Origin: Candidatus Micrarchaeota archaeon
GTDB lineage: Archaea > Micrarchaeota > Micrarchaeia > Anstonellales > J096
Direction: 5' to 3'
NCBI GenBank assembly: GCA_015522475.1
Contig: WAMF01000003.1
Coordinates: 33,043-97,042, forward strand
Length of the DNA: 64,000 nt
The stretch's first letter is position 1. The number at the start of each line of letters is the position of its first letter. Made by a program: the position numbers and the translations under genes. The notes below the pieces were generated by a model, which made no database searches, was not told where the DNA came from, and was given only the letters and a program-made list of their open reading frames with translations. This document shows, piece by piece, positions 9,514-52,974 of this stretch.

Positions 9514-10575
9514 TTACCCTACCTTACTTTGCCTTACTTTATTTTGGGCCTCTCGTCCGTTTTTGCCCCTTCCCATAAGCTTGCAGTAAGTACATACGCT
9601 GTCTTCAGCAGAAGTAGGATAGCCACAGATCTTGCACTGCTTCCGCCACGAACGGTCTAGAGAGATGTGAGGACTAAGCCCAACCATGTATTTGAGCAAT
9701 GAGGAAGGAAAGTTGCTTAGCTTGTGTCGCCTGCTTAGCTTTTCTACGTCATCAATAAAAGCTTTAATCCGAGCCTGAGAGTTCCCCTCTTTAAAGGGAC
9801 ATTCAGTTTCAACGATGGGAAGACCTTCCTTCTTCAGTACGTCTTTGAACGTCTCTATTTTAGCCTCTCTTACCCAAAATAAGGGCTTAAGGCGCGTGCA
9901 TAGCTTTTCCTCTTCGTTGCCGGGGGCTATAGGTCCCTTTGTCGGCAACGTTACTCCACTCTGTGAGAAGATATTCCTAAAGAGAAAGCTAAGCTCATCG
10001 TCCATGTTGTGTCCCGTTGCTATGGCACCATCCTTGCCAAAGTGTTCCCAACAAAACTTATTCATAAGATAGCGCTTAATAACACCACAAGCAGCACAGA
10101 TTTTAAAACGGCCCGCTCGTATCTCCTCCGCTTTCTCCTCGACGATTTTATGTAGTGGCTTTTCAGGCTTAACGACGTGGAGGGGTATATCTAACTTAGA
10201 TGCAATAGCCTCAACAACCTCCCTACTCTTGGAAGAGAACGTCGGTATGCCCAGCTGAATGAAGAGAGCAGAGAGCTCATAGCCGAAGCGGTCCTTAAGT
10301 TGGGCTAAGAAATATGCCACAGTGGTCGAGTCTTTGCCCCCACTCAAAGCAACGGTTATGTGTTTGGGCATCTTATTTTGGGCTTCTAGTTTGTATAGGA
10401 AGCTCTGAACACGTCGTTTTATATGACGAGGCACATTCGTCTTCGAAGTGAACGGTCTTCTATGTCTTTTTAGCTGTCTTTTTGGCAGAGAAGGTGAAGA
10501 TGGCACAGGTGAGGATAAAAGAGAGCTATTCTCAAAGAGCTTGTTGGCCTTGCTGCCTTCGTTATCTTTAGACAT
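9514..10575 (-). CDS. PP-loop ATP pyrophosphatase, TtcA/TtuA/NcsA-type tRNA 2-thiolation enzyme
   Basis: ALSGGKDST PP-loop, ATGHNMDDE and a C-terminal CKICGYP...CTYC zinc ribbon. It has an unusual basic, Ser/Pro-rich N-terminal extension of about 70 aa and overlaps the upstream gene by 8 nt. Confidence 0.7.
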   Translation of the reverse strand: MSKDNEGSKANKLFENSSLLSSPVPSSPSLPKRQLKRHRRPFTSKTNVPRHIKRRVQSFLYKLEAQNKMPKHITVALSGGKDSTTVAYFLAQLKDRFGYELSALFIQLGIPTFSSKSREVVEAIASKLDIPLHVVKPEKPLHKIVEEKAEEIRAGRFKICAACGVIKRYLMNKFCWEHFGKDGAIATGHNMDDELSFLFRNIFSQSGVTLPTKGPIAPGNEEEKLCTRLKPLFWVREAKIETFKDVLKKEGLPIVETECPFKEGNSQARIKAFIDDVEKLSRRHKLSNFPSSLLKYMVGLSPHISLDRSWRKQCKICGYPTSAEDSVCTYCKLMGRGKNGREAQNKVRQSKVG

Positions 10576-11837: not shown

Positions 11838-13330
<1,493 letters not shown>

Positions 13331-13371
13331 AAAGAATTTGTGCAAGGGAGCTAGTCATTCTATTAACAAAG

Positions 13372-29213: not shown

Positions 29214-32200
29214 CTACTTAAGGTTAACAGCAGTTCTTACCTTATATTTAAATGTGGGATGGAATTGTGTAGGTGGCTCTACGTTTATCTCTTCTTTCCC
29301 AAAGTAATTCGCATGTAAATATTCACTAAATCCTTTCCTGTTGCTTATACCTCCTGCTTTATCGCTTATGTAAAGGCTTAAGTCGTTTTTCTCTGCAAAG
29401 TCCTTAATCCTCTTCATGACTTCATCTATAAATTCATGCTTCTTTTCAGTGGATAAGCCTGAAGTAAAGCTTTCAGAAGGGTCAAAGCCTATGATGATAA
29501 GAGAGTCCTTGCCTTTTATATTCCTCACAATACTTAGCACAGCCCCTTTAATCTCATTATCTATGAATATCTTTATGACAAAGACCTCTTTCCTTATCAT
29601 ATCATAGGGATAATCCCCAAAACACGTGCCAGAATAGACACCTTGGAAGACATCTAAGAGCGTCTTCTTTGGTGTGAAAAACAGCACAACATCCCTACTA
29701 ACAGCCTCTCTCTTCTCTTTTGTTTCCTTTATCTGTTTTTTTAAGTAGTTCATCTGCTCCAACAGTTTACTCTTACTCATAGCTGGCTCAAGGGCTTCCA
29801 GCTTAAAGTCATGCAAGGTATCTTGCAGAGGTGTGTTAAACTCCAAGAGAGTGTTAAACACGAGGGTTCTAAGCTCGGGTGTTACTTCTCCTCGTAGGTA
29901 CTTTTCAAAATCCTCTTCATGGCCACTTCTGTTTATAGCTTTCCACACTAAATAGTTCAACAACCCCTCATCTATATCTCGCCTTTTAATAATCATTCTT
30001 AAGAGATTCTCCTCGGGGACTTTGCCTGCCTTATACTTTTCTAAAAAATTTTTGTCGATGTTTAATTCAGCTGCTAATTTCTCAATATCTTCGTGCTTTA
30101 TTCTTTCCTTTATGCTTTCAAAATTTTCTTTAAGCTTTTCAATACCCTTCTCTAATTCTTCTCCATTCTCTATATAATCTCTATGAGTTTCTTTTAGGAC
30201 GCTTATGAACTCTTTCTCCACATCCTCTGGGACCTTTAACTCAACGTTAACAGCCATGAACTTGAACGCATATCTCCTAGTCTCGGGTTTCACTTTGATA
30301 GGAGCAGAGAAGTCCTTTAACTTTTCTTCAATTTCTTTATAGAATTCACGCTTTGTTTTTCCTTCTGCAGAGATGTGCAAATAATCTGCTACACCTTTTA
30401 TTTTCTCAAAATAGCCTTGGGGGTCTTTATCTATACTTAAATTTAAGCTCAATAATAGTCCTTCAAACAGTTCTGGCTTAGAGACTTCCTTTCCTTCCGC
30501 CAGCTCGTTAATGAACTCATTATACTCTTTAATAACAGCATTTACAAGCTTATCCATAGCTGCCCTTCTTCTTTCAGGTGTTTTTATGTTGTTTAAGACG
30601 TCTTTCTTTTCATCAAATCTAAGCATGAGAATAGGATACATCGCCACAGGAAGCTCTCTTAGCTTCTTAACACTTGCTTTTGATAGATAATTTAGAAGAG
30701 GCTCAAATTTGTCTGAGTATATTGTGAAGATTGTTAAGATTTGATTATAGTCTAACTTAGCATCTATAGCCTTTTTTCCTAGCTCAATGAACGCATTGAA
30801 ACGCTCATCTGAGGTTATGAGCTTCTTAACTGCTGGGAATCCGAATTCCAAAATATACCAATAATCCACTCCTTTCTCAACAGCCTTTTTTCCTAGCTCA
30901 ATGAACGCATTGAAACGCTCATCTGAGGTTATGAGCTTCTTAACTGCTGGGAATCCGAATCGCAAGATATACCAATAATCCACTCCTTTCTCAACAGCCT
31001 TTTTTCCTAGCTCAATGAACGCATTGAAACGCTCATCTGAGGTTATGAGCTCCGTAACTACTGGGAATGCCCGCAAGATAGCCCCATAATCCCCTCCTTT
31101 CTCAACAGCCTTTTTTCCTAGCTCAATGAACGCATTGAAACGCTCATCTGAGGTTATGAGCTCCGTAACTATTGGGAATACCCACAAGATACACAAGATA
31201 GCCCCATAATCCACTCCTTTCTCAACAGCCTTTTTTCCTAGCTCAAGCAGTGCTCTTTCCATTTTCAATTTTGTCAACTCATCCCCATCAATTCTTGTTG
31301 CAAGGTCGGATGCAACCTTTTCTATTCTTGATACCATCTCTGTTGTAAAGTCTCCCTTCATGTCTTGAATCTCTTTCCTAAGCTCATCAACGGTTTCTTT
31401 TGAGGACCCTTCCCCTGCTACCCCTCCTAAATTCCTCTTAGCTATAATGAACTCAAAATCCTCTTCGCCCAAATGACCTTCATGAACCTCCTTATATAAT
31501 GTTTTCCATCCTCTTCGCTTGTAGAACAACATTAATTGTGAGACTTTATTCTTCATTCTTGCATGTGTGGCAATGTACTTCACACCCTTTTCCTCTAATT
31601 GCCTCTTGAAGTCATTTAGCATCTTAAGCGTCAGGTTTTTATCAAGAGAGGCAATGTCATCAATATAATATACCTTTCCCTCTTTAGCAGCTTCTTCCAT
31701 ATTTCTGAATTCAGCTTCTCCCACTTTCTTTTTTATTTGTGTTTTGTCGTAGCTGTCCAATTCATATCCCGCTTCATTTATAGGGTTAGCCACAATAAAT
31801 GCCACGTACTTTCCATTCTTCTCTACAACAGTTACGAGAGAGTTTTCCTGAAACATCTCTTTAAATTCATCAAAATCTAATACAATATCTGGATTATCTT
31901 TGAAGGCTTTCTTTTCAACTTCATAAAGCTCTTTTAGCCTCTGTTTTAGTTCCGTTATATTCGTAACGATCCTGACGGCTTTATCTGATGTGTCTATGTT
32001 TGATATAGGAGTATTAAACCCTCCTTGCGGATTCCTTTTTTGAGCTGATGTAGCTCTTTCTCCTTTCTCTCCTTTAGGAACTTGCTTAACTTCACTAAAA
32101 AAGTCTTTAATCTTCATAATCATTCTCTTTGCCTCCTCAGAGTCCCCCTCATTTTTATCTCTTTTTTCCTCTAATCTCTTTTGTATTTTAGAAAGGGCGT

Positions 32201-32363
32201 AAAGCGTCTTGTAGCGGCCTTTTATGAAGTTTGCAGCTTCGGGAAACTCATGAGGGTCGAGGCTTTGTAAAAACGAGAAAAGCTCCTGTCGTGTGCGTTT
32301 ATCCAACTCATCTAGCTTAATATTCTTCAAATTACAGGGAGGATCTTCTGGAAGTCCTTTCAT
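29214..32363 (-). CDS. large multidomain protein: weak GNAT-like domain, five helical tandem repeats, uncharacterised C-terminal domain
   Basis: 1049-aa ORF, more AT-rich than its neighbours. GNAT-like block VYYIDDIASL...NKVSQLMLFYKRRGWK. Repeats of the type SDERFNAFIELGKKAVEKGVDY. Confidence 0.65.
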   Translation of the reverse strand: MKGLPEDPPCNLKNIKLDELDKRTRQELFSFLQSLDPHEFPEAANFIKGRYKTLYALSKIQKRLEEKRDKNEGDSEEAKRMIMKIKDFFSEVKQVPKGEKGERATSAQKRNPQGGFNTPISNIDTSDKAVRIVTNITELKQRLKELYEVEKKAFKDNPDIVLDFDEFKEMFQENSLVTVVEKNGKYVAFIVANPINEAGYELDSYDKTQIKKKVGEAEFRNMEEAAKEGKVYYIDDIASLDKNLTLKMLNDFKRQLEEKGVKYIATHARMKNKVSQLMLFYKRRGWKTLYKEVHEGHLGEEDFEFIIAKRNLGGVAGEGSSKETVDELRKEIQDMKGDFTTEMVSRIEKVASDLATRIDGDELTKLKMERALLELGKKAVEKGVDYGAILCILWVFPIVTELITSDERFNAFIELGKKAVEKGGDYGAILRAFPVVTELITSDERFNAFIELGKKAVEKGVDYWYILRFGFPAVKKLITSDERFNAFIELGKKAVEKGVDYWYILEFGFPAVKKLITSDERFNAFIELGKKAIDAKLDYNQILTIFTIYSDKFEPLLNYLSKASVKKLRELPVAMYPILMLRFDEKKDVLNNIKTPERRRAAMDKLVNAVIKEYNEFINELAEGKEVSKPELFEGLLLSLNLSIDKDPQGYFEKIKGVADYLHISAEGKTKREFYKEIEEKLKDFSAPIKVKPETRRYAFKFMAVNVELKVPEDVEKEFISVLKETHRDYIENGEELEKGIEKLKENFESIKERIKHEDIEKLAAELNIDKNFLEKYKAGKVPEENLLRMIIKRRDIDEGLLNYLVWKAINRSGHEEDFEKYLRGEVTPELRTLVFNTLLEFNTPLQDTLHDFKLEALEPAMSKSKLLEQMNYLKKQIKETKEKREAVSRDVVLFFTPKKTLLDVFQGVYSGTCFGDYPYDMIRKEVFVIKIFIDNEIKGAVLSIVRNIKGKDSLIIIGFDPSESFTSGLSTEKKHEFIDEVMKRIKDFAEKNDLSLYISDKAGGISNRKGFSEYLHANYFGKEEINVEPPTQFHPTFKYKVRTAVNLK
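30730..31255. repeat. in-frame tandem DNA repeats (periods 114, 114, 111 and 120 bp) inside the large ORF
   Basis: The core CCTTTTTTCCTAGCTCAATGAACGCATTGAAACGCTCATCTGAGGTTATGAGC recurs at 30770, 30884, 30998 and 31109. A truncated fifth copy starts at 31229 and a diverged copy lies before 30770. Confidence 0.9.
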
Positions 32364-38962: not shown

Positions 38963-40171
38963 ATGGAAAACAAAAAAAGCAAAGCAAAAAACGAGGAGAT
39001 GGATGACGAGTTGAGCTACGACGAAGTAAGAAAAGCCCTAATTAGCGTAGAGCGGCCTTCAAGCATCGCTCTCGCGAGATACGCTTTTTTCCTCGTGGGG
39101 CTGCTTAAAGATGTGGAGTTAAGAGAAGGGCAAAAAGAGCATAAGGAAAATAAAAAGGCAGAGCAAAAGGCAGAGCGAGACAACGAAGAGGAGAAACGCA
39201 AGCGCGAGATAATTCACCTCCTGAAAAAGCTGCGCAAAGAAATGATAAGACGTGGATTCTCGCGCGGCTTAGCCTTTCTTAGAGCTGGCAGGGAAGATGA
39301 AGATGTAGAAGGACAAGAAGCAAGCGATAGAGCAAAACATCTTCGCCTTTTTAGAGAAATTGCCCAACTGAAAAAAGCGGCTTTATCCACAGTAAAACTA
39401 GCTTTGTACAACGACGCGTTGAAAAAACACATCCACAACCCACTGCTTAAAAGACATCTGCCTCCAGCCGGCCAATACATCCCCTCACTTGTAAGCATGA
39501 GATACAATGCCATACTTGCATACAAGTATGTTTACAAACTACTCTCGTCGTACGGCGAGATTGTGAAGGCAAAGCGCTACCTCGTTGATGATATGGGTAT
39601 TGGCTATTATGTGTCTGAAGAATACATTAAGCAATTCAAAGACGTGCACAGGATAAGAGAAGTAAAAAGGGTAAGGCGCACTCTACCTCTCATATCCAGC
39701 ACATATATCCGGCGTCTGTTGGCAGTTTCTGCCGTAAGCGCGGCCTATGAAGATGTCAAAAGGAGGGAAAAAGAAGAGGAAGACAAAGAGCTTATTGAAT
39801 ACAACAAGATACTTCAAAAACACAACATCCTTCCCTATGTTGTGCTAGACGTTTACAATGGCTTCGACGAGGTCAAGGAGGAGCTTGTCAAAAAAGGCTT
39901 TGCAATGATTGATGATGGAGAGTTCATAACAAAGGCAAAAATATTGGACAAGATAAGAGCAAAGAAACGCGCATTTTACATGAATATGTTAACAAAGGCT
40001 AAAGCCTTGCTGAAAGACGAGCTGCTCGCAGCATGTGAAAAAGGCAGGCTGCCCTCTATGGTTAAAAAACCTACGCTTTCCCAATTAGCCATTCTTAAGG
40101 CGCTTAACCCTTCTATGAGCGACGAGGAGCTCAAGAAGTTCGAGCAAGACGGATGTGGCAGAAAAGGATAG
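38963..40171 (+). CDS. hypothetical Lys/Glu-rich protein
   Basis: 402-aa ORF co-directional with top6BA, with GGAGGGGG upstream of the ATG. No family recognised. Confidence 0.55.
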   Translation: MENKKSKAKNEEMDDELSYDEVRKALISVERPSSIALARYAFFLVGLLKDVELREGQKEHKENKKAEQKAERDNEEEKRKREIIHLLKKLRKEMIRRGFSRGLAFLRAGREDEDVEGQEASDRAKHLRLFREIAQLKKAALSTVKLALYNDALKKHIHNPLLKRHLPPAGQYIPSLVSMRYNAILAYKYVYKLLSSYGEIVKAKRYLVDDMGIGYYVSEEYIKQFKDVHRIREVKRVRRTLPLISSTYIRRLLAVSAVSAAYEDVKRREKEEEDKELIEYNKILQKHNILPYVVLDVYNGFDEVKEELVKKGFAMIDDGEFITKAKILDKIRAKKRAFYMNMLTKAKALLKDELLAACEKGRLPSMVKKPTLSQLAILKALNPSMSDEELKKFEQDGCGRKG

Positions 40172-40311: not shown

Positions 40312-43300
40312 ATGTTGACGCTAAATATAAGCGGAGCTATGTTATGGCAGCTCGTCATACTGTTGCCGGGCATTCTTGTGGCTTTAGCGCTCTCTAAGGA
40401 GAAGTCTCTTCTTAATAGATTAATTGCGGGTTTGGGCCTTGGCTTTGTAGCTGTAGTCGCGTTCGGTGCGCTTATCACTGTCTTTAACATTCCATTCTCT
40501 ATGTATATCGTATATGGTGTGCTCCTTGTGGAGTATGGCATAGCCGCATTTTTCCTGTACAAAAAATGGAATGATGTCACAGCGCTGTTTAACGAGTGGC
40601 AAGCAGGATTCAAAGAAGCCATTAAAAAGACAGATTGGAAATATTTTGGCATAGCTCTTGGCATAATACTTGTCCTTTATTACTCATATATCCTCCGTTT
40701 TACGACGGTCTCGCCAATTTATTACGAGTTAGACCCTTACTACTACTTATATATATCTACGCAGCTCCTCTCGCCATCAACAGGACATATTGTGCCTGCT
40801 CACGACACAACAGCGTGGTATCCTGTAATTAATGACTCTCATAGAGACATACCCGGCCTAGCATTTTATCAAGCGCTCTTTTTTGCATTGAATGAAGGGA
40901 AAGCGACGCTGACTGCACATCTTGATCTTTATAAGTTAGCATTCTACGCAAACTTCTATCCACCTCTCGTGGGGCTTTTGATGGCCGGCTTTGTGTATTT
41001 GGCATTCTCACGGCGTTTCTCTCCGGGAGCGGCACTCATGGCTGCAATTATAGTAGTAACGACGCCCAGTGTTCTCAATAAAACGCTTTCAGGTGTATTT
41101 GAGGCACAGCCTATGAGTTTCATGGCGCATACACTCTTTCTCATGCTCCTCTTTTTAGCTGTAGATGACGATGTTGTATATAGAGCACTTATATTCCTCG
41201 TTGGAGTTGTTTATACAATGGCGAGCACACAGGCAATAATAGGTGCGTTTGTCTTGCTAATTGCTGCCGGCCTTTACTTCGCGTTCTATAGAGAAAATGA
41301 AGGCTTTGAAAGAGCCATTGAATATGGCGCGTGGGGCTTAGCCCTAGGTGCTCTTTTAATGGTTGTGTGGACAAGCGCTTCGCTCTTAAGCATAGGACAC
41401 TCTTTACCTCTCTTAGTTGGGCTTGGTGTAGGAGCGGCACTTTGGGGTTATAGGAATTACAAAAAGGACGTTCATGCAACAATTGAGGAAATAACCAAAA
41501 GATATGGCAACCTCGTTCTTTACACAATTTATGCAATTATACTGCTAGTGAGTATTGGAGTGATATGGCACATAGCCAAAGGGGGATTAAGTGTAGGTGA
41601 GTATCGCTATCCTCTCCAAAGAACCATTGCTGAGCAGCAGCCAACGGGCATGTCCCTCCAAGGAACGCTGGGATTTGTCGGCTACGAATTTATGAAAACG
41701 CAGAAGACCATGCAAGGCGTCCTCCTCAAAGAAAAGTTCCCCATATTGAGCACGCTTCTCTCCTATATAAGTGACATATTTGAGATCATATTTAAAGTGA
41801 GCCTAGCTCTGCTTGAAAAAACTGGAGCTGTCATTGTCTATGAGCCAAAAATTCCCAACCTCGGTTTTATTATATGGGGTGGCGCCCTCCTCTATGCCGT
41901 TTACTTAACATGGAAAGGCATAGCCAACCATTGGGAAGGTGAAGATGCCTTTGGCTTCATATTGGCCATCTTAGCAGTGGGCATAACGATCCCCGGATTT
42001 CTTAAAGCCAAGTACGTCGTGCATACAGCGTTCTTCCTCTCACTCTTTGGAGGATATAGTCTAGCTCTCCTCTACGATTGGACAAAAAGATGGCTTAGCA
42101 AGATGAAAGACGGCGAAACATACATGCTTATACTTTATGGTATTGCAGCTCTTCTCGTTGTGTTCGTGCTAGATGTGAATTTATATGGCAATGGCTTTAA
42201 CATCCCTCTCCTCTATTACAGCGTCGTACAAAAACCAGCTTACAATCCGGCGATGTTTGCCCAAGCCTTTGGTGAATTCTGCCATTTGCCTTGTGGAGAA
42301 AACATAACAGTTCAACAGCTATGCTACACGAACCATTCGTTTAGCGCCATATGTAAATTTTATCCTGGTGAAACACCCCTAAACAAGGTCTGCCAAGACC
42401 CTAACGCTCAACACCTTTGCGCATTGGCTAGAGGCAACGTCTCCATAGCTGAGCAGTACTCAAGCAGAAACTGCGCCCTTTATTTCAGCCTTCATGCCAA
42501 ACAAACAACTGAAGACAGCGTCGCCTTAACACGAGCCTGTGGCGTGACACTGCCAGAAGCATGGCTTTCATCCATGGACTGGCTTTATGAAAACACGCTA
42601 AAGAATGCAAGAATAACAAGCTGGTGGGACTATGGCCACTGGATAAACTACTGGGCCAGAAGAAACGCCGTCATAAGAAACGACCATCGTTCTCACTACA
42701 TGATTGGAGAAGTGGCCTATGCATACATCATGGCGCCTATACAAGATTTCGACGCTATAACCGCCAAATTCCACTCGGATTATGCACTCTTTGACAGGGA
42801 AATCCTCTTCGGAGGACAAACCTTCGGCGGCAAATTTTACGCTCTGAACTACCTTGCATGTGCGGACAGAAACCTAACAACAGTCAAAAAAGGCCAGCTG
42901 CAGAGTCAATGTGAAATCGACAACCTATGGGAAGGCATATATGTCACAAACGAGGACTGCACAATCTCACCCATAACCGGCCAAAAAGGCAAAGTCGCTG
43001 TTTCATTTAGAGGAAGCCCACAATATGGCTACAAAAAGGCTTACTGTGTCGGCTTAGCACAAACATTAGAAGGGAAAATATTGGCGACGTACTACTTAAA
43101 CAAAACAAACTCACACGGAGAGCTCGTTCTAAATAAAGCGTTCCTCTTGCCAGTGGGCCAAAACACATACATACTTATCTACACAAAGGACCCTGTTTGG
43201 TACGTGAACGGCACATATGCAAACGGATGGAGTGACAGAAAAGGTCGCTTCTATGACAGCATGGTTTACAGAGCTTATATACTAAACGAGCTACCCGGCT

Positions 43301-43557
43301 GGATAAAGGTTTACGACAACGGTTATGTCAAAATATACAAGAGGAACAGCTCAGCTGGCTCAACTAATCTAAACAACTCGACAAGCAACTCGGCCACATC
43401 GATAAGTTCAGCCAACTCAACCAATAATCAAGAGCCCCAAAGTCAATTACCACATGCCAACATAACTAGCAATGCAAGCAATGTATCGAGCCATGTGACG
43501 AATACTTCAAACATATCCACAAGTAACTTAAGCAACACATCTAATAAAACAAATTAG
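40312..43557 (+). CDS. aglB: oligosaccharyltransferase AglB (STT3 family)
   Basis: Multi-TM N-terminal half, with LDPYYY in the first external loop and the WWDYGHW catalytic motif. The C-terminal tail is rich in Asn/Ser/Thr. Confidence 0.85.
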   Translation: MLTLNISGAMLWQLVILLPGILVALALSKEKSLLNRLIAGLGLGFVAVVAFGALITVFNIPFSMYIVYGVLLVEYGIAAFFLYKKWNDVTALFNEWQAGFKEAIKKTDWKYFGIALGIILVLYYSYILRFTTVSPIYYELDPYYYLYISTQLLSPSTGHIVPAHDTTAWYPVINDSHRDIPGLAFYQALFFALNEGKATLTAHLDLYKLAFYANFYPPLVGLLMAGFVYLAFSRRFSPGAALMAAIIVVTTPSVLNKTLSGVFEAQPMSFMAHTLFLMLLFLAVDDDVVYRALIFLVGVVYTMASTQAIIGAFVLLIAAGLYFAFYRENEGFERAIEYGAWGLALGALLMVVWTSASLLSIGHSLPLLVGLGVGAALWGYRNYKKDVHATIEEITKRYGNLVLYTIYAIILLVSIGVIWHIAKGGLSVGEYRYPLQRTIAEQQPTGMSLQGTLGFVGYEFMKTQKTMQGVLLKEKFPILSTLLSYISDIFEIIFKVSLALLEKTGAVIVYEPKIPNLGFIIWGGALLYAVYLTWKGIANHWEGEDAFGFILAILAVGITIPGFLKAKYVVHTAFFLSLFGGYSLALLYDWTKRWLSKMKDGETYMLILYGIAALLVVFVLDVNLYGNGFNIPLLYYSVVQKPAYNPAMFAQAFGEFCHLPCGENITVQQLCYTNHSFSAICKFYPGETPLNKVCQDPNAQHLCALARGNVSIAEQYSSRNCALYFSLHAKQTTEDSVALTRACGVTLPEAWLSSMDWLYENTLKNARITSWWDYGHWINYWARRNAVIRNDHRSHYMIGEVAYAYIMAPIQDFDAITAKFHSDYALFDREILFGGQTFGGKFYALNYLACADRNLTTVKKGQLQSQCEIDNLWEGIYVTNEDCTISPITGQKGKVAVSFRGSPQYGYKKAYCVGLAQTLEGKILATYYLNKTNSHGELVLNKAFLLPVGQNTYILIYTKDPVWYVNGTYANGWSDRKGRFYDSMVYRAYILNELPGWIKVYDNGYVKIYKRNSSAGSTNLNNSTSNSATSISSANSTNNQEPQSQLPHANITSNASNVSSHVTNTSNISTSNLSNTSNKTN

Positions 43558-46430: not shown

Positions 46431-46504
46431 ATGGGGCTGCCCGGATTTGAACCGGGGTCACAGGCTCCCAAAGCCCGCATGCTAACCAGGCTACACCACA
46501 GCCC
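46431..46504 (-). tRNA. tRNA-Pro (anticodon UGG)
   Basis: Cloverleaf folded by hand: acceptor GGGGCTG/CAGCCCC, anticodon stem CGGGC/GCCTG, loop TTTGGGA, T arm CCCGG-TTCAAAT-CCGGG. 74 nt, with no encoded CCA. Confidence 0.9.
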
Positions 46505-46602
46505 CGCCCTCCAATATATATCCCAAAAATCTCGTGTAAAAGAACGCCTGCTTATAATTGGCGAAGGAAAACCTTTTTAAGCCATAGCTTCAAAATAGCA
46601 CC

Positions 46603-47433
46603 ATGGACACAAAGACTGCATTCTATATTTCGGCTGGTGTAGGCCTCTTGGGGGCTGTTTTAGCGTTTACAATTCAAGGCGGTGGACTAATGGCTATTTT
46701 GGGTGGCATAATAAGCGCCCTAGGAGCAGCAGGAGCTATGGCTATATACAAGTATGGCTACATGCTTATTCCCATGCTAACAAGCACTTCGAAAACGGTC
46801 GTCGTGACAACAGATGGCTATGAGATCCCCCCAACACAAGATGCAGTTGTCAAAAAAACAAAGGAAGGAGTATACTACGCTTCTGTATTCTTGACAATGA
46901 AGCTTTACCAATCAGCTGTAGAGATGACAGAGGAGCAGTTAAGAGCTTACAACAAAGCATTCGAGACAGCTATGGCAGGGTTCAAGGGCGTCGTCAAGAT
47001 AGCGTATATGCTACATGCTGTCGACGTCTCGGACAAGAAAAGAGAGCTTGAAACAAAGAAGGCAGAGGCGCAGCTTCGCCTTCAGAGAGAGCGAGAAAAA
47101 ACAGAGCCAGATCCTCTTCGTATAGAAAGATACGAAAGGGAAGTGATGTACTGGAATGCCCAAATAGATAAGCTCTCAAGAGGGCTTCGTCCAATGAGAG
47201 TTGTTCTCTATGCTATGACAACAGCTGCCGGTTTAACAAGAGAAGAGGCTCTAGCTAAGGCAAGAAACCAAGCTGCTGAATTGAGAACGCTGCTTTCCAA
47301 CGCATTGAACTGTGAAGTGTATGTCTTAGCTGCAGACGACCTTATGCGCGTTTTAGAGTGGGAGAAGTTCATGCCCACAAGCGCCGAAGAGCTAGAAGAG
47401 AACCTAGAAACAGAAGGCTCATCCAACATGTAA
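46603..47433 (+). CDS. membrane protein: Gly/Ala-rich TM hairpin plus a soluble domain resembling a VirB4/TraC N-terminal domain
   Basis: Two TM helices (AFYISAGVGLLGAVLAF, LMAILGGIISALGAAGAMAI), then about 200 aa. It lies directly upstream (22 nt) of the VirB4-like ATPase. A TATA element at 46573-46581 is about 26 nt before the ATG. The functional call is inference. Confidence 0.45.
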   Translation: MDTKTAFYISAGVGLLGAVLAFTIQGGGLMAILGGIISALGAAGAMAIYKYGYMLIPMLTSTSKTVVVTTDGYEIPPTQDAVVKKTKEGVYYASVFLTMKLYQSAVEMTEEQLRAYNKAFETAMAGFKGVVKIAYMLHAVDVSDKKRELETKKAEAQLRLQREREKTEPDPLRIERYEREVMYWNAQIDKLSRGLRPMRVVLYAMTTAAGLTREEALAKARNQAAELRTLLSNALNCEVYVLAADDLMRVLEWEKFMPTSAEELEENLETEGSSNM

Positions 47434-47455
47434 GGACTGAGATGAGGATGAAAAA

Positions 47456-49033
47456 ATGAGTAGAATACCCAAAGCGCCTCTTAAGGTTGTCGAAACGAAC
47501 AACGTTGAAATTGGCAGAAGAAATATTCTTCACCATCCCCCTGAACCTCCACCCGAATTCCTTATGGAAGCAGCGGATAACGGCATATATGTGGGCAGGA
47601 CCGACATATTGCATACGCCCTTCTTCTGGACACCGAAATATGTGACAAACCCCCATATCGCTATAGTTGGTATATCGGGTAGTGGTAAGTCTTATTTCAT
47701 AAAAACATTCCTCATAAGAGCTAGCTTTGTGTGGAACAGCAACGCGATCATATTAGACTGGGCTGGCGAATACAAGGACTGGGTTTTGGAAACAGGTGGT
47801 AAAGTTGTCGCTTTAGGCAAGGGCAACTATCTCAACCTTCTTGACTTGGGTGGCATGCGACCATACGATAGAATCGAACAGGTTATGGCGACGCTCGGCT
47901 TGTTGACGGATGTGGGTAGATATCCAGAACAAAAAAGGCTCACAGAGGAAGCCATTGAAGAAGCATACGTACGCGCACGCTTCAAACTAGATTCAAATGA
48001 AACTAGAGATGAACTCGGCAATCCCCTACAGCCGCCAACGCTGAAAGACGTCGTGAAGATTTTGGAGGAAAAAAAGCAGCTCGGCACTTACGAATACCCA
48101 TCTGAGCTGAACAATGCCATTTATAGGCTCAAGAAACTTACACGCGAGGGTGAAGACTACTTTGCCCAACAGAGCACAATAAGCTTAGACGACATAGTAA
48201 CTAGTGGATTGGTTGATATAGACCTTACTGGCTTGCCTGACGAGCAAACGAGGGCTCTCGGCGCTTTAACGCTCATACAATTCATAAAAGAAAAGATGCG
48301 TCAAGAAGGTGCTCAGGAACAAGGAGCCATACGCCTCATAACCGTTTTGGATGAGGCATGGAAAATTGCCGGCGAAGAAAACAGCGACGTAGTCATGATT
48401 GTAAGGGAGGGTCGAAAATACAATTTCTCCCTCATTGTAGCAAGTCAGAACCCCACAGATATAAGTCAAGCTATATTCAGCAACGTCGGCACAACATTCA
48501 TTCTCAAGACAAAGTTTGAAAATTATCTAGACTATCTACAAGGCTCTTTACGTTTCAGCAATTACTTAAGAAAAAAGATTATGGGTTTTGGTGTGGGGCA
48601 AGCCGCTATAAATATGGCCTTCCATGTGCCACTTCAGTTTTCGCAGACGTTTGTGATAAAGCACATAGAAGGTGAAGAGCCTATTAAAGATTACTTCATA
48701 TCCTTTGAAGGTATTGAGGGGGTACCTATGGCATTTTCTATATCTATTAAGAAGAACGAATTTAGAGCTCGCCTTAGACGCTTCGGTCTATCAGATGAAC
48801 ACGTCGAGGCTATAACAAACGCCTTTGAAAAGGCTTACAGGCGTATGAACGTCGTAGATCTTGTCTTGCAGTTAGAACGTTACGGTGTGGACAGAAGGCA
48901 GATCGTAGACTTCTTAAAGGAGATGGGTGTCAACGACGCGACAGTCATAGATATATTCACAAAAGCAGACTTCAAACGAGAAGGCAAAAAAGGCAAGCCG
49001 ACAAGGCTTCTCCTAAAAAAGAAGGGCAAGTGA
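47456..49033 (+). CDS. VirB4/TraC/CedB-like (FtsK-HerA superfamily) ATPase
   Basis: Walker A VGISGSGKSYF, NLLDL, Walker B ITVLDEAWKI and REGRKYNFSLIVASQNPTDI, plus a C-terminal extra domain of about 100 aa ending in a Lys-rich tail. Confidence 0.75.
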   Translation: MSRIPKAPLKVVETNNVEIGRRNILHHPPEPPPEFLMEAADNGIYVGRTDILHTPFFWTPKYVTNPHIAIVGISGSGKSYFIKTFLIRASFVWNSNAIILDWAGEYKDWVLETGGKVVALGKGNYLNLLDLGGMRPYDRIEQVMATLGLLTDVGRYPEQKRLTEEAIEEAYVRARFKLDSNETRDELGNPLQPPTLKDVVKILEEKKQLGTYEYPSELNNAIYRLKKLTREGEDYFAQQSTISLDDIVTSGLVDIDLTGLPDEQTRALGALTLIQFIKEKMRQEGAQEQGAIRLITVLDEAWKIAGEENSDVVMIVREGRKYNFSLIVASQNPTDISQAIFSNVGTTFILKTKFENYLDYLQGSLRFSNYLRKKIMGFGVGQAAINMAFHVPLQFSQTFVIKHIEGEEPIKDYFISFEGIEGVPMAFSISIKKNEFRARLRRFGLSDEHVEAITNAFEKAYRRMNVVDLVLQLERYGVDRRQIVDFLKEMGVNDATVIDIFTKADFKREGKKGKPTRLLLKKKGK

Positions 49034-49042
49034 GGTGTATGT

Positions 49043-49684
49043 ATGCAAAATGGCAAAAATAGCAAAAACAAGGGAAAGCAGCCAAACCTATCTGCCCATC
49101 CTATAGCTATATCCGTCGACACAGGAGAGCCTATAAAGGAAGGCTACAGGATAAAAGATGATCCTATACTGAATGCGATAAAAGACTTAAAACGCATGCT
49201 GGGCACATACAAAGGCAACCTTTTGTACGTCTCAGAGGAAGGCAAAGCGCGTTTTGTAGAGAGAAGAAAGCGCTTCGAGAGGTATATGTTGGTCGCTGTC
49301 CTGTTTGCCGTTCTCATATACACAATAGGTGTCCTTCTTCCTCTTGTCTCAGGAGACTTTGGAAAAGCTCTGAACATGTTTATACCATCGACAGTTTTAA
49401 CAATAGTTGTATTCTTTTTTGTCCTTCTTACATACGTTCCTTCTATAGAAGATGAGATAAGTCAAGTGCCTAAAAAGTACTTAGCGGATGTGTTTTTAGC
49501 TAAGGGAGGAAAAGAAGGAAAATTAGAAGAAAGCAAAGAAATAAAAAAGCAAGAGGAAGGGAAGGCAAAAAGAGCAAAGGCAAAAGCGAAGAGCAAAAGA
49601 AACGACACAAAAAGGAGGAAGCTAAAAGAGATAGAGAAGCAGGAAAAGCAAGGGAGCCCAAGAAAAAAGAGAAAGAGGGTATGA
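49043..49684 (+). CDS. 2-TM membrane protein with long Lys/Arg-rich C-terminal tail
   Basis: TM helices YMLVAVLFAVLIYTIGVLLPLV and VLTIVVFFFVLLTYV. Tail KAKRAKAKAKSKRNDTKRRKLKEIEKQEKQGSPRKKRKRV. GAGGTG overlaps the preceding stop codon. Confidence 0.6.
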   Translation: MQNGKNSKNKGKQPNLSAHPIAISVDTGEPIKEGYRIKDDPILNAIKDLKRMLGTYKGNLLYVSEEGKARFVERRKRFERYMLVAVLFAVLIYTIGVLLPLVSGDFGKALNMFIPSTVLTIVVFFFVLLTYVPSIEDEISQVPKKYLADVFLAKGGKEGKLEESKEIKKQEEGKAKRAKAKAKSKRNDTKRRKLKEIEKQEKQGSPRKKRKRV

Positions 49685-49722
49685 TGTGTACGTAAAGCCC
49701 AAAAGAAAAAGAAGGTGAATAT

Positions 49723-50433
49723 ATGGCTGAAGATATGGAAATTGGCTCTATAGAGATAGTAACGCCTGGAGAGGCCAATATAGATGAACTTTACAACATA
49801 ATCTCAGAATACAAGAATTTCTATGCTCTGAAGGAGAAAGACAAGGCTTACCTGGCAACTGTAGAAGAAGAAGACGTTTCGGGCAATCCTCGAAAATTCA
49901 TAATCGTGGAACTCATGCCTTCGAAGATAATTGTTATATATACAATTGCTCCAGACGAAAGCCCATCTGTTAGGAAACTGGAGGTGTTCTCAAAAATCTT
50001 GCCTATGCTAGAGCCCATAATCCCAAAGTACAGACTGCCCATTTCTGCCTTGCTTTCTATACTTGACTCGGCTCTTTCCCAATTCCTCAAGAAGTTCACA
50101 CGCGACGTGAGGGATGTACTCATAGACAACGATAGATTAAGAGAAAAAGTAAAGGAGCTACAATCACACCTAGAGATGGAAAGAAAAAATGTAAGGGAGC
50201 TCACCACAAAACTCTATGAGGTAAATTCTCTCCTATCAGAGGCTAAGATGAAGCTCAAAAAGTACGAGACACCCTCAGACGAAGTGCTCAAGCAGCTTGT
50301 AGTAGAATGGCTTAAAGAACACGATGGAGAAATTGATTTAGAAACGTTCTCTAAAGTTAAAAATGTGCCCATAGCGCGCGTCGAAGAAATTTTGACTAGA
50401 CTTATAGAGGAAAAGGTAATAAAGCCTTTATGA
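49723..50433 (+). CDS. cytoplasmic coiled-coil protein with C-terminal winged-helix-like module
   Basis: Heptad-like stretch LREKVKELQSHLEMERKNVRELTTKLYEVNSLLSEAKMKLKK, then EWLKEHDGEIDLETFSKVKNVPIARVEEILTRLIEEKVI. AAGGTGA lies upstream. Confidence 0.6.
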   Translation: MAEDMEIGSIEIVTPGEANIDELYNIISEYKNFYALKEKDKAYLATVEEEDVSGNPRKFIIVELMPSKIIVIYTIAPDESPSVRKLEVFSKILPMLEPIIPKYRLPISALLSILDSALSQFLKKFTRDVRDVLIDNDRLREKVKELQSHLEMERKNVRELTTKLYEVNSLLSEAKMKLKKYETPSDEVLKQLVVEWLKEHDGEIDLETFSKVKNVPIARVEEILTRLIEEKVIKPL

Positions 50434-50472
50434 AAGACGTGAGGGTATGACTCAAAAACATGAGGGGAGAGA

Positions 50473-52974
50473 GTGAAAAAGCGTTTCATAATACTATCTG
50501 AGCCCAAATATGCAAAGAAGTACAAGGTAATCAAAAAGCCCCTTCTGAAGCGCATAATGGAAAAGCTCAAACCCAAGAAAAAAAAGCAAAAGAAGGAAGT
50601 AAAAAAGGTTGAAGAAAAGGTGGAAATAAAAGGTATCGATGTTTTATTGGGTAAAGCGCTCCCCATCCTCATCTTAATATTTCTCATCGGTGTGGGCTAT
50701 TACGAATATATACACTTATCAGCTCTCCTTCATGCAATCCCGCCAGCATCGCTAATTCCAGCCCAGCCAAAAGCTGTAAACATAAGTATAACGCAGACGT
50801 ATCTGGCTGACTTCGGCACGAGAATAAGTAAACAACTCGCAGCTGTAGCATTTGTAAGTCTCAAAGACAATGCCTCTCTTACAGTAGGTGAACCTATAAA
50901 ACCTGTAAGTGGGATAGTCTATGTTCTAGCAGACCGTTCCTATCCTCAAACAGAGGCGCTTACAAACGAAGTAGAAAGCACATTGATAAGAGAAGGCTTC
51001 AGTGTAACAGAATTGAGATCTGTCAATGAATTGAAGTTTGTAAAAAAAAGCAGTTTGGTGATAGTTATATACGACGTTCTTCCTTCTGGTCTAAAAGAGT
51101 GGTTCACACCTCTTTTAAACAACGACGTTGACATTTTATACGTTGGAGCTAATCCCCTTTCAGAATCTACAGGCACACTTTTTAAGAGCATAACAAATTT
51201 TTGGGAGTTGAAGGGTGTGAGAATTGTGCCCGCTAGCCTCTCATCTAAAGAACTCAACATAAGCAACATTCGTTATACAGTAGGCCATACCAGCCTAACT
51301 CTATACAATACTATACCCGCCTTCTCATTTAAGGACGAAAGTGGAAGGGGACGCTTTGTTCTCTTTACAGGAGCTGTAGGCGGATCAAACTTCTACAACT
51401 CTTGGAAATCTCCAAGCGATGCAGCTAGTGACATCGAAAAGGTTGTTAATGCACTCTACAATGCAACCTTCTCTAATCAACATATATCAAAATACAGATT
51501 AAGCAAGGGTGACCATGCTGTGTTTTTCACGCTGCCTTTAACAGAAGAGAGTTCATACATGCTCATAAAGGCTACGGCTAAAGGAAAACTCCCTTCATAC
51601 AGAGTCGCAATCGTGGAAAAAGATTTCCCAGGCTCCGCATACTTTGAAGAGGCCTCGCCCATATTACCATACTCCATTTCTAAGAAGAAATCTGTTATAG
51701 AGTTTGTAGCTAACCCCTCTGATATGTATTCGTTCGTTAGGGTGAAGCTCCTTGTAACCAATGCCTCTGGCAACGTAATTGATGAGAAAGATGTAAACAA
51801 AGGTAACATACTTGCAGCCAACCAACTTATAGACGTAGACTATTACAACCCTGGTATAGATGAAGGCGGCTACATATTCGAATTCGATGACACAGACCTT
51901 CACAAAGTGTATGCAAAGACTTTTCTAGAAGTGGGCACTCTTAACATAAGGCTCGTGCCAGATTTCAAAGGCGCAACCATACATGTCTATTTTAGCGTAG
52001 CGGGCAGACCGAAGGTTATTGGAAAAGCCACGCTCACGTATTTGAAGAAAGGCAAGCCAGAAGCCTCTATGACGTTTACAAACGTCGACCACATAGATTG
52101 GGAGCTCAAAAGCTATTTCAACGGTCCTATACCTGTGGGCAAGTACAACTTCACAGTTACAGTACCAGGCTATGGCACAAAAACGTTTGAAGTGGTTAGA
52201 GAATCATCTGTAGGTATATCTCAATTAATGACTCCCCAAAACATAGCCATAATCATATTCTCTGTAATTATGTACGCTGTTGGCTACATAATGAAGAGGC
52301 ATGAAGAGCTGCCCTACTCTATAGATGTGCCTGACTTTGCCCCTGTAGAATACGAAACAATTGAGATAACGGCTGAGCAGCTTCTCAAAGCGTTTGACTT
52401 GGTGAACGACTTCTACAAGTGGAAAAACACACCTCTAACGGTAAACGAGATAAAGAAGGGCATTCGCCTGGTTCTGGACAAAGAAGACCTTGTCCTCAAC
52501 GACTTCAATGTGCAGATTGTGTTGGAAGCGCTCATAAAAGAAGGGAAAATCCTTCTCATCGACAAGTATTATTTGAAAAAGGATTGGCTGAATGAAGGTT
52601 TTACGGCTGAGCAGCTCATCATATTTAGACGTTTAAGAGATGCATGTATTGATTTGGCTATTCCTTTCAAGCCTCTATCAAAGAGACTTCCACATACAAA
52701 GTTAACGCTGCCTTGGCAAGAATTCTGGGTTTATATATACGCTCCTCTTCAGAGAGATGCCATAACGCGGGATATAATAAAGAGGGCTGTGAGCGAAGAG
52801 AATATAATGCCTGTCATACTCTTCTACGACACGAAATCGTTAGATGAATTCGACATTGTGCTCAGCGATGGCCGTGTGAAAAGCAGCCTAATAAAAGCCT
52901 ATGTAGACAACGATATGGTTTACATATTCACAATCGAAGAGTTCATAAAGAAGCTCAAGCAGCTGAAGAGTTAG
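50473..52974 (+). CDS. large bitopic membrane protein (basic N-tail, about 500-aa ectodomain, second TM, about 230-aa cytoplasmic domain)
   Basis: GTG start after GAGGGGA. Lys-rich N-terminus, TM ALPILILIFLIGVGYY, a beta-rich ectodomain with several N-x-S/T sites, and TM IAIIIFSVIMYAVGYIM. No family recognised. Confidence 0.6.
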   Translation: MKKRFIILSEPKYAKKYKVIKKPLLKRIMEKLKPKKKKQKKEVKKVEEKVEIKGIDVLLGKALPILILIFLIGVGYYEYIHLSALLHAIPPASLIPAQPKAVNISITQTYLADFGTRISKQLAAVAFVSLKDNASLTVGEPIKPVSGIVYVLADRSYPQTEALTNEVESTLIREGFSVTELRSVNELKFVKKSSLVIVIYDVLPSGLKEWFTPLLNNDVDILYVGANPLSESTGTLFKSITNFWELKGVRIVPASLSSKELNISNIRYTVGHTSLTLYNTIPAFSFKDESGRGRFVLFTGAVGGSNFYNSWKSPSDAASDIEKVVNALYNATFSNQHISKYRLSKGDHAVFFTLPLTEESSYMLIKATAKGKLPSYRVAIVEKDFPGSAYFEEASPILPYSISKKKSVIEFVANPSDMYSFVRVKLLVTNASGNVIDEKDVNKGNILAANQLIDVDYYNPGIDEGGYIFEFDDTDLHKVYAKTFLEVGTLNIRLVPDFKGATIHVYFSVAGRPKVIGKATLTYLKKGKPEASMTFTNVDHIDWELKSYFNGPIPVGKYNFTVTVPGYGTKTFEVVRESSVGISQLMTPQNIAIIIFSVIMYAVGYIMKRHEELPYSIDVPDFAPVEYETIEITAEQLLKAFDLVNDFYKWKNTPLTVNEIKKGIRLVLDKEDLVLNDFNVQIVLEALIKEGKILLIDKYYLKKDWLNEGFTAEQLIIFRRLRDACIDLAIPFKPLSKRLPHTKLTLPWQEFWVYIYAPLQRDAITRDIIKRAVSEENIMPVILFYDTKSLDEFDIVLSDGRVKSSLIKAYVDNDMVYIFTIEEFIKKLKQLKS

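Follow-up and report, generated by a model that had tools for sequence, protein, structure and literature searches.

In Archaea, chromosomal systems derived from type IV secretion systems (T4SS) are represented by Ced (CedA, CedA1, CedA2, CedB and CedD) and Ted (TedA, TedB and TedC) of the Crenarchaeota, which lack a relaxase and use a VirB4-like ATPase; both are systems for DNA import. The other defining parts of these systems are a VirB6/CedA-like channel with six or seven transmembrane (TM) helices and a VirB2/CedA1-like pilin (PMC9905601). In Bacteria, the inner-membrane VirB3/VirB4 modules of conjugative T4SSs include TrwM/TrwK of R388, TraL/TraC of F, PrgI/PrgJ of Gram-positive systems and TrsD/TrsE of pGO1. 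A chromosomal T4SS is also found in the Patescibacteria (Candidate Phyla Radiation, CPR), where it is essential for epibiotic growth (PMC12102498). Here, these systems are compared with a five-gene operon at positions 46603–52974 of a 64,000-nt stretch of DNA (the window) from a Candidatus Micrarchaeota archaeon (GenBank assembly GCA_015522475.1, contig WAMF01000003.1, positions 33,043 to 97,042). The operon is probably a membrane-embedded, T4SS-derived translocation machine whose motor is a VirB4/CedB-type ATPase split into two proteins.

A model-made reading of the DNA (the original prediction) had described a single compact operon around a VirB4/TraC/CedB-type ATPase. The open reading frames (ORFs) were found exactly where it placed them, all on the + strand and with intergenic gaps of 22, 9, 38 and 39 nt, and the public record GCA_027075965.1 (JALTHZ010000017.1) has the identical five gene calls, with equal lengths. 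The tight spacing, the motifs of the ATPase, hidden Markov model (HMM) scores, structure comparisons and plasmid matches all support this description. The public names of the genes are ‘ATP-binding protein’, ‘DUF87 domain-containing protein’ and ‘hypothetical protein’, and no description of the operon was found in the full-text literature on Micrarchaeota or DPANN archaea with VirB4, CedB, HerA or type IV secretion. The genes, designated g1 to g5, are as follows:

46603..47433 (+), g1: 276 aa; N-terminal TM hairpin and cytoplasmic alpha/beta domain
47456..49033 (+), g2: 525 aa; VirB4/CedB-type P-loop ATPase without an N-terminal domain of its own
49043..49684 (+), g3: 213 aa; small cytoplasmic domain at the N-terminus, two TM helices and a C-terminal tail rich in Lys/Arg
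49723..50433 (+), g4: 236 aa; soluble; alpha/beta domain, coiled coil and C-terminal winged helix
50473..52974 (+), g5: 833 aa, GTG start; basic N-tail, TM1, ectodomain, TM2 and cytoplasmic C-domain

By hydropathy, the products of g1 to g5 have 2, 0, 2, 0 and 2 TM segments, respectively.

The Motor ATPase

The g2 product is a P-loop motor domain. As had been read earlier from the sequence, it carries a motif set of the VirB4/TraC/TrbE type, made up of GISGSGKS (residues 72–79), VLDEAW (297–302) and REGRKYNFSLIVASQNPTD (317–335). The core residues of these motifs, including a downstream R-E-G-R-K / S-Q-x-P set, are invariant in 59 orthologues. The landmarks of the gene are:

47669..47692 (+), Walker A of g2, residues 72–79
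48344..48361 (+), Walker B of g2, residues 297–302
48737..48985 (+), C-terminal five-helix domain of g2, residues ~428–510

Three Pfam models pass their cut-offs in g2: DUF87 (47.8 bits against 23.2), AAA_10 (41.2 against 27.5) and P-loop_TraG (35.1 against 25.8). Among the NCBIfam models, CedB ranks first with 78 bits, followed by the VirB4 of mycoplasma integrative and conjugative elements (VirB4_plasma, 69), CedD (65) and the CD1110 VirB4-like model (58), with lower scores for anti-phage HerA (44), TraC (43), VirB4_CagE (38) and repair HerA (37). The AlphaFold2 (AF2) model of g2 (pLDDT 80) finds its best Foldseek superposition on the C-terminal domain of Thermoanaerobacter VirB4 (4ag5/4ag6), with a target-normalised TM-score (TMt) of 0.77–0.79, a root-mean-square deviation of 3.4–4.0 and 21–22% identity. 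DndH-C (7es4) is comparable (0.72), and Sulfolobus HerA (4d2i) clearly worse (TMt 0.52–0.56). When 72,556 plasmids were searched with g2 by tblastn, 4,965 records were matched, 4,700 of which are conjugative (95%), and a traC annotation is present in 17 of the 25 matches listed. On the ranking of HMM scores and of structures, which is the basis of its class placement, g2 is a member of the VirB4/CedB branch and not a repair helicase of the HerA–NurA type, as the original prediction had favoured.

Only about 60 residues lie ahead of the P-loop in g2. HerA proteins have an N-terminal barrel, the ‘HAS’ domain. Because its N-terminal stretch is so short, g2 is devoid of the VirB4 N-terminal domain and, in our judgement, of the HerA barrel as well.

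At the other end of the protein, the five-helix domain gave no significant match in a PDB profile search or in a Pfam scan of the orthologues. A helix-hairpin-helix, (HhH)2, assignment was dropped, its sole basis being a Topo V match at E 0.1. The domain behaves as an autonomous module, since it also occurs as a free-standing gene: in one sub-clade, a sixth gene of 98 aa lies between g2 and g3 (11947–12243 in locus L066, 11613–11909 in L074) and encodes a copy of the domain that ends in the consensus tail ITQVVLA. In the genomes with this free-standing copy, the ATPase's own C-domain has diverged. Most g2 orthologues end in a conserved I(S/T)QV(V/I)LE(E/D) sequence, such as ISQVVLEE; in the clade of the window, the tail (window 48986–49030) is instead the basic PTRLLLKKKGK. 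The g2 tail could be a peptide on which, for instance, the winged helix of g4 docks.

The VirB4 N-Terminal Domain Encoded in Trans

The original prediction had left g1 unassigned, and at the sequence level no family was recovered with Pfam, NCBIfam or a PDB profile search, the Pfam scan of all g1 orthologues returning noise. Its identity emerges from structure and from distant relatives. Hydropathy indicates a hairpin of two TM helices (residues ~6–48) followed by a cytoplasmic alpha/beta domain. The AF2 model (pLDDT 89) has as its top four Foldseek matches in the PDB the TrwK/VirB4 chains of the R388 T4SS inner-membrane complex: 8rtb_A, 8rtd_O and 8rtd_T (prob 1.00, E 8e-3, 186 columns) and 7o41_B (prob 0.82, E 0.045, 240 columns). 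For the hairpin itself, any homology to VirB3 would be tentative, one of 52 family members matching PrgI at E 0.056.

An exhaustive HMMER search with g2 recovered fused relatives of 689–913 aa, in which the ATPase part, 29–36% identical to g2, starts at about residue 240–300 and the N-terminal ~300 residues are laid out like g1, with two TM helices and then an alpha/beta domain. The g1 family aligns with the N-terminal 300 aa of the fused thaumarchaeal relatives in hhalign (Prob 94%, E 2e-8, 255 columns), and the whole of g1 can be aligned with the N-terminus of the 813–913-aa proteins. In the two fused proteins scanned, the CedB model is covered from position 72 to 587 of 590, with 119 and 144 bits.

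Partition of this domain has precedents. The N-terminal domains of CedB and CedD are reported to be homologous in structure to parts of that of VirB4 (PMC11868833), and stand-alone proteins resembling the VirB4 N-terminal domain (TrsD), as well as VirB3–VirB4 fusions, are reported to exist (PMC12102498). With moderate confidence, g1 can thus be read as a VirB4-type N-terminal domain that acts in trans and brings a two-helix membrane anchor. Because the four best Foldseek matches are TrwK/VirB4 chains, fused thaumarchaeal relatives exist and these match CedB from end to end, it is concluded that g1 and g2 together make a VirB4/CedB-type motor that is split and carries a membrane anchor of its own. 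Their genes are neighbours (22 nt apart in the window, a median of 8 nt in orthologous loci), and both are strongly conserved throughout the phylum. An apparent g1–g2 fusion in locus L072 was rejected as a scaffold-gap artefact caused by a run of N.

The fused ATPases, a family that occurs in Thaumarchaeota (P0251, P0283 and others; loci L081 and L082), are the closest relatives found outside the Micrarchaeota. They combine the two-helix hairpin, the g1-like domain and the g2-like ATPase in one chain, and end, as judged by eye, in a winged helix-turn-helix and PD-(D/E)xK-like module, not in the helical domain of g2. They are rare, being present in two species genomes of GTDB. The proteins are encoded at 9992–12577 in L081 (861 aa) and at 9992–12733 in L082 (913 aa), and share the C-terminal motif GG..H.Y...DLV.D...EVET. 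A DNA methylase is encoded ~7 kb upstream of the fused ATPase in L082, so that locus is probably part of an integrated mobile element.

A Conserved Core Module of the Micrarchaeota

The source organism is a Micrarchaeota (DPANN) archaeon, as indicated by its archaeal 16S rRNA gene and by best protein relatives labelled Micrarchaeota or Anstonellales. Related loci were collected by scanning the GTDB species-representative genomes for the ATPase and taking the best 80 loci; apart from a few differently labelled metagenome-assembled genomes (MAGs), the 80 best matches per scan were all from Micrarchaeota. With broader patterns, at least 546–586 stretches in these genomes encode a relative of the ATPase. 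After duplicate fetches had been removed, 150 distinct loci remained, 109 of them with enough flanking DNA to be judged.

The original prediction had made its reading depend on the gene order being shared by related genomes, and it is: in 103 of the 109 judgeable Micrarchaeota loci, the five genes keep their order on a single strand, an association beyond chance for that reason. By tblastn, g1, g4 and g5 are detectable in 105 of the 109; being short and fast-evolving, g3 frequently escapes tblastn, but inspection of the ORFs finds it in place. The median gaps in orthologous loci are 8, 4, 20 and 38 nt. In the cultured Ca. Micrarchaeum harzensis A_DKE, whose genome is complete, g1, g2, g4 and g5 were detected in order by tblastn, and in Ca. 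Fermentimicrarchaeum limneticum all five genes.

Median identity to the proteins of the window is 60% for g2, 44% for g1, 31% for g3, 30% for g4 and 25% for g5; g2 is 57–83% identical across Micrarchaeota and g1 35–64% across 36 orthologues. In the two loci where the comparison was possible, g2 is more conserved than PolB (61% vs 48%, L021) and than PyrG (65% vs 56%, L007). A divergent set of ATPases (P0222–P0240) is 37–49% identical, and for one of these, P0236, the GTDB representatives include no close relative. Inteins interrupt some Micrarchaeota orthologues of the ATPase (P0221, 1196 aa; P0220, 1026 aa; also L137 and L065–L078), with the N-terminal splicing region at about residue 75, at the P-loop, in one and at about 291, in the Walker B region, in another.

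The neighbours, in turn, are not conserved. PolB and PyrG each flank the cluster in one locus only, the most frequent neighbours are housekeeping genes, found in fewer than half or just over half of the loci, and no mobile-element genes were seen among the variable flanking genes. Since the order of the five genes is kept across the phylum while the flanks vary, the five genes are one conserved core module of the phylum and not a mobile element, which agrees with the earlier view of a chromosomal system rather than a plasmid remnant. The module is fixed and under strong purifying selection, and the system is apparently essential. Some local synteny exists around it: a glycosyltransferase family of the GT4 type is the commonest neighbour (38 of 63 loci), in many cases on the opposite strand just downstream of g5, and in 27 of 63, g1 has an adenylosuccinate-lyase-like gene immediately upstream.

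Expression Signals and Flanking DNA

Upstream of g1, a promoter element can be read in the sequence:

46573..46581 (+), TATA-box-like element CTTTTTAAG (cCTTTTTAAg), ~26 nt before the g1 ATG

A TATA-like box is also found ~30 nt upstream of g1 in the close relatives L001, L002, L003 and L005. No Shine-Dalgarno (SD) motif is seen upstream of g1, and the transcript led by g1 is therefore probably leaderless or provided with a very short leader. The internal genes are preceded by GAGGA (g2), GAGGTG (g3), AGGTGA (g4) and GAGGGG (g5), 5–10 nt from their start codons. The TATA box and the four SD motifs had both been pointed out before, as had the similarity in composition to the surroundings: the GC content of the operon is 0.41–0.46, the same as that of its flanks.

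In the window, the operon is bounded by PolB and a tRNA-Pro on its upstream side and by CTP synthase on its downstream side; all three are encoded on the opposite strand. The tRNA-Pro(TGG) gene (46432–46505, −) lies upstream of g1 at a distance of 97 nt. Integration often takes place at tRNA genes; neither an integrase nor a repeat was seen. Farther away, the 16S rRNA gene is complete (11838–13331), and as the 64-kb window contains no 23S rRNA gene, the two are not linked. At E 1e-5, Pfam gives no match for two long ORFs, 29214–32363 (−, 1049 aa) and 38963–40171 (+, 402 aa).

The Partner Proteins

The remaining three proteins had been described as matching no well-known family, and searches of Pfam, NCBIfam, PDB profiles, PADLOC and PHROG bear this out, the PHROG matches of the operon proteins being generic or unannotated. 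No PADLOC match was found for g3, g4 or g5. Comparison by hhalign among the domains of g3, g4 and g5 and the thaumarchaeal C-terminal module revealed no relationship; the one weak signal (37%) hints at a winged helix in the g5 C-domain. The products of g3, g4 and g5 define three families of proteins that are new and whose genomic association is fixed. Their main domains are:

50290..50430 (+), C-terminal winged helix of g4, of the ESCRT-II/CdvB type, residues ~190–236
~50713..52224 (+), g5 ectodomain, ~509 aa here and ~500–530 aa, poorly conserved, in orthologues
~52294..52971 (+), g5 cytoplasmic C-domain, ~225–230 aa, with most of the invariant residues

For g3, no credible family match was obtained from Pfam, NCBIfam, PADLOC or PHROG. 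Hydropathy and charge place its TM helices at residues 84–102 and 112–130, followed by a Lys/Arg-rich tail of variable length among orthologues. The alignment shows a CxxC...CxxC, zinc-ribbon-like N-domain in most orthologues; here (window 49043–49290), and also in L003 and L004, all the motif cysteines have been lost.

In g4, a coiled coil (~120–185) separates the N-terminal alpha/beta domain from the winged helix. The family profile matches PDB entry 2xvc_A, deposited as ‘ESCRT-III’ (E 7e-5), which we take to be the winged helix of Sulfolobus CdvB, and 29 of 36 orthologues match Pfam EAP30/Vps36 (best E 2.4e-5). The remaining matches are mostly to coiled-coil families.

The largest protein, g5, had been called bitopic with a large ectodomain. 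Hydropathy instead gives two TM segments, TM1 at ~57–80 and TM2 at ~585–607, after a basic N-tail of 56 aa with 23 K/R, so that a 509-aa ectodomain is followed by a cytoplasmic C-domain of 230 aa. Two TM segments are present in 35 of 35 orthologues, and 34 of the 35 have the same domain lengths. The invariant residues include P620, F622, W650, P654, N679, W705, R719, R722 and F732. Weak hints of an Ig/beta-sandwich fold occur at residues ~470–598. Otherwise, Pfam, NCBIfam, PADLOC and PHROG gave no match for g5 and the PDB profile search nothing significant, Pfam scans of all orthologues gave noise only, and a word-indexed homologue search returned the query itself only.

Lys-rich tails on three of the proteins had been taken as a sign of polyanion handling. 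Their basic character is indeed conserved in g3 and in the N-terminus of g5, but the tail of g2 is clade-specific. The functional deduction is correspondingly weak, because the g2 tail is not conserved and because the positive-inside rule also predicts basic tails next to membrane segments.

Comparison with Known T4SS-Related Systems

Several similarities link the locus to Ced. Apart from the shared chromosomal location, VirB4-like ATPase and absence of a relaxase, CedB is the top NCBIfam model for g2 and spans the fused relatives end to end, and in both cases the VirB4 N-terminal domain is partitioned, with the N-terminal domains of CedB and CedD superposing on different parts of it (PMC11868833). 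There are also differences from Ced and Ted. The locus contains no counterpart of CedA/TedA (6–7 TM) or CedA1/TedC, its g3, g4 and g5 proteins are unrelated to Ced/Ted proteins, its lineage is DPANN and not Crenarchaeota, and DNA import by it would be conjectural.

Missing T4SS parts were sought in the operon, in the recurrent neighbours and in the 64-kb window. The only polytopic ORFs in the window encode a P-type ATPase and an AglB-like oligosaccharyltransferase (OST). The latter, a polytopic protein of 1081 aa at 40312–43557 (+), was considered as a VirB6 candidate and rejected as an OST of the AglB/STT3 type with a WWDYG motif. This protein has ~12–13 TM helices, the motif in the form WWDYGHW, a Ser/Asn/Thr-rich C-terminal tail and no Pfam match at E 1e-5. 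No pilin family was matched in Pfam or NCBIfam, the sole TrbC/VirB2 hit being noise (1 of 35 g5 orthologues, E 0.14). The TM hairpin of g3 is flanked by the cytoplasmic zinc-ribbon-like domain and the basic tail. A pilin could also be encoded elsewhere in the genome. Because no VirB6/CedA channel or VirB2/CedA1-like pilin was found in the operon, its recurrent neighbours or the window, the operon is not a member of Ced/Ted by the published definition. The Ced/Ted-type membership put forward in the original prediction is therefore abandoned, also in view of a CedB score of 78 bits against a cut-off of 700, while the claim that the operon works like a T4SS-derived translocator survives. The prediction had been right that no relaxase, coupling protein or integrase accompanies the genes.

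Compared with the bacterial VirB3/VirB4 modules, the fold of g2 fits best on the VirB4 C-terminal domain and the soluble domain of g1 matches TrwK/VirB4. The TM hairpin ahead of the N-terminal domain in g1 recalls VirB3–VirB4 fusions, and TrsD provides a stand-alone precedent (PMC12102498). Unlike conjugative T4SSs, however, the operon has no VirB6, VirB8, VirB1, type IV coupling protein (T4CP) or relaxase and does not reside on a mobile element, and unlike VirB4, g2 has an additional C-terminal helical domain.

The chromosomal T4SS of Patescibacteria offers a parallel of another kind. It likewise belongs to an ultra-small, host-dependent lineage, lacks a relaxase, is broadly conserved in its phylum, pairs VirB4 with a separate protein resembling its N-terminal domain and is presumed to exchange macromolecules with the host (PMC12102498). 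That system, however, is bacterial, related to the monoderm mating-pair-formation type FATA (MPF-FATA), and has recognisable VirB3, VirB6 and VirB8, whereas in Micrarchaeota the partners are specific to the lineage. The two systems resemble each other in lifestyle and logic, not by any demonstrated shared descent.

Weighing the Alternatives

A number of observations count against a T4SS-derived translocator. The motor falls short of every equivalog cut-off about tenfold (CedB 78 against 700 bits, CedD 65/600, TraC 43/567, VirB4_CagE 38/643), and on its sequence g2 is a distant relative outside every named equivalog. The fit of g1 to VirB4 is modest (E 8e-3, query-normalised TM-score of 0.33), and as it comes without alignment coordinates, the placement on the N-terminal domain is not directly confirmed. 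Neither the operon, nor its conserved neighbours, nor the window contains a VirB6/CedA-like polytopic protein, a VirB2-like pilin, VirB8 or VirB1, and T4CP, relaxase and integrase are missing from the same places. The profiles of g3, g4 and g5 match nothing in the loci of the thaumarchaeal fused ATPases, so the partner set is not tied to any T4SS. From the sequences, neither the substrate nor the direction of transport can be identified. Finally, conservation at the level of housekeeping genes is unusual for conjugation-type systems and would also fit a role in the cell cycle.

Such a role would be that of a DNA pump in chromosome segregation or cell division, with the ATPase, a member of the HerA/FtsK superfamily, acting like FtsK, g1, g3 and g5 anchoring it at the division site and the CdvB/ESCRT-II-like winged helix of g4 linking it to ESCRT/Cdv-type or other division proteins. 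The near-universal presence in the phylum and the conservation above that of PolB or PyrG speak for it, inteins are typical of essential genes of DNA metabolism, and the g4 matches to 2xvc and EAP30, together with coiled-coil matches that include ZapB and DivIC, point the same way. Yet the lineage of the motor is that of VirB4/CedB, with an N-terminal domain of the VirB4 type, and the FtsK_SpoIIIE model (PF01580) reaches only 17.4 bits in g2, below its cut-off of 24. A fast-evolving ectodomain of 509 aa is unexpected in an intracellular DNA pump, ftsZ, cdv, smc and par are absent from the recurrent neighbours, and the coiled-coil matches of g4 are generic; a division pump is therefore considered improbable. 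Another possibility is that the ATPase does not pump nucleic acid itself and instead extracts or inserts subunits, as in pilus biogenesis, so that the operon would assemble or secrete a surface structure, such as a pilus of the conjugative type, a tube for host contact or a protein of the envelope. VirB4 is required for T4SS pilus biogenesis. Moreover, Ced and Ted build VirB2-like pili (PMC9905601), the large g5 ectodomain has beta-sandwich hints and a GT4-type glycosyltransferase is the commonest neighbour. The module, however, is without a pilin-like gene, the zinc-ribbon-like cytoplasmic domain and basic tail of g3 are unlike pilins, and the single TrbC/VirB2 match is noise. Surface assembly is accordingly rated as unlikely.

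Anti-phage defence of the HerA or DndH type, or DNA repair by a helicase of the HerA–NurA type, has already been largely refuted and is very improbable. PADLOC models for DndH (69.6 bits) and HerA do match g2, and its sequence matches in the PDB include the Sir2–HerA and DUF4297–HerA complexes. The four partner proteins, however, have no PADLOC match at all, and no gene for Sir2, DUF4297, NurA, Mre11 or Rad50 lies nearby, among the ORFs of the window or the recurrent neighbours. The ~60 residues before the P-loop are judged too short for the HerA N-terminal barrel, and the HerA equivalog scores of 36–44 bits contrast with cut-offs of 800–970. A universal, single, syntenic and highly conserved presence is, in addition, the opposite of patchy defence islands. 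Taking both sides together, it can be held with fair confidence that the operon encodes a VirB4-type translocation or assembly machine.

Proposed Mechanism and Biological Role

The most likely role of the T4SS-derived machine is the ATP-driven movement of macromolecules across the Micrarchaeal envelope. In the proposed mechanism, g1 and g2 would assemble as a membrane-docked hexamer, like VirB3/VirB4 in the inner-membrane complex of R388. Two TM helices each from g1, g3 and g5 would make up the membrane-spanning part and take the place of the missing VirB6/CedA channel. The fast-evolving g5 ectodomain might span the envelope or S-layer and contact the outside or a host cell, and g4, as a coiled-coil dimer with a winged helix, might serve in the cytoplasm as an adaptor, either for the substrate or for the conserved C-terminal module of the ATPase.

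By analogy with DNA import by Ced, nucleic acid would be the best guess for the substrate; it is nevertheless less likely than not that the substrate is DNA or RNA. The site of transport would probably be the interface with the host, as in the analogous T4SS of Patescibacteria. Host-directed exchange is attractive because of the parallel in lifestyle with that essential, chromosomal and relaxase-less system. It is thus suggested, tentatively, that the operon may be the core envelope machine for macromolecule exchange between Micrarchaeota and their hosts, most plausibly acquiring host nucleic acid.

This candidate machine bears on two questions: by which route DPANN archaea acquire what they are unable to make, and in what way they are connected with their hosts. 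It is encoded in essentially every sampled Micrarchaeota genome, is more conserved than the replicative polymerase and can be interpreted mechanistically as a VirB4-type motor. As the operon is present in the one cultivated Micrarchaeon, Ca. Micrarchaeum harzensis A_DKE, the proposal is directly testable. The locus extends the picture of T4SS domestication in Archaea beyond the Crenarchaeota, with their Ced and Ted systems, and adds to the cases where the VirB4 N-terminal domain and the motor are encoded separately. If the host-exchange proposal is true, the operon would be the DPANN counterpart of the essential chromosomal T4SS of Patescibacteria and a previously unrecognised secretion or uptake apparatus of Archaea, in which a split VirB4/CedB motor would be combined with the lineage-specific g3, g4 and g5 proteins, these three replacing the canonical VirB6 channel and pilin.

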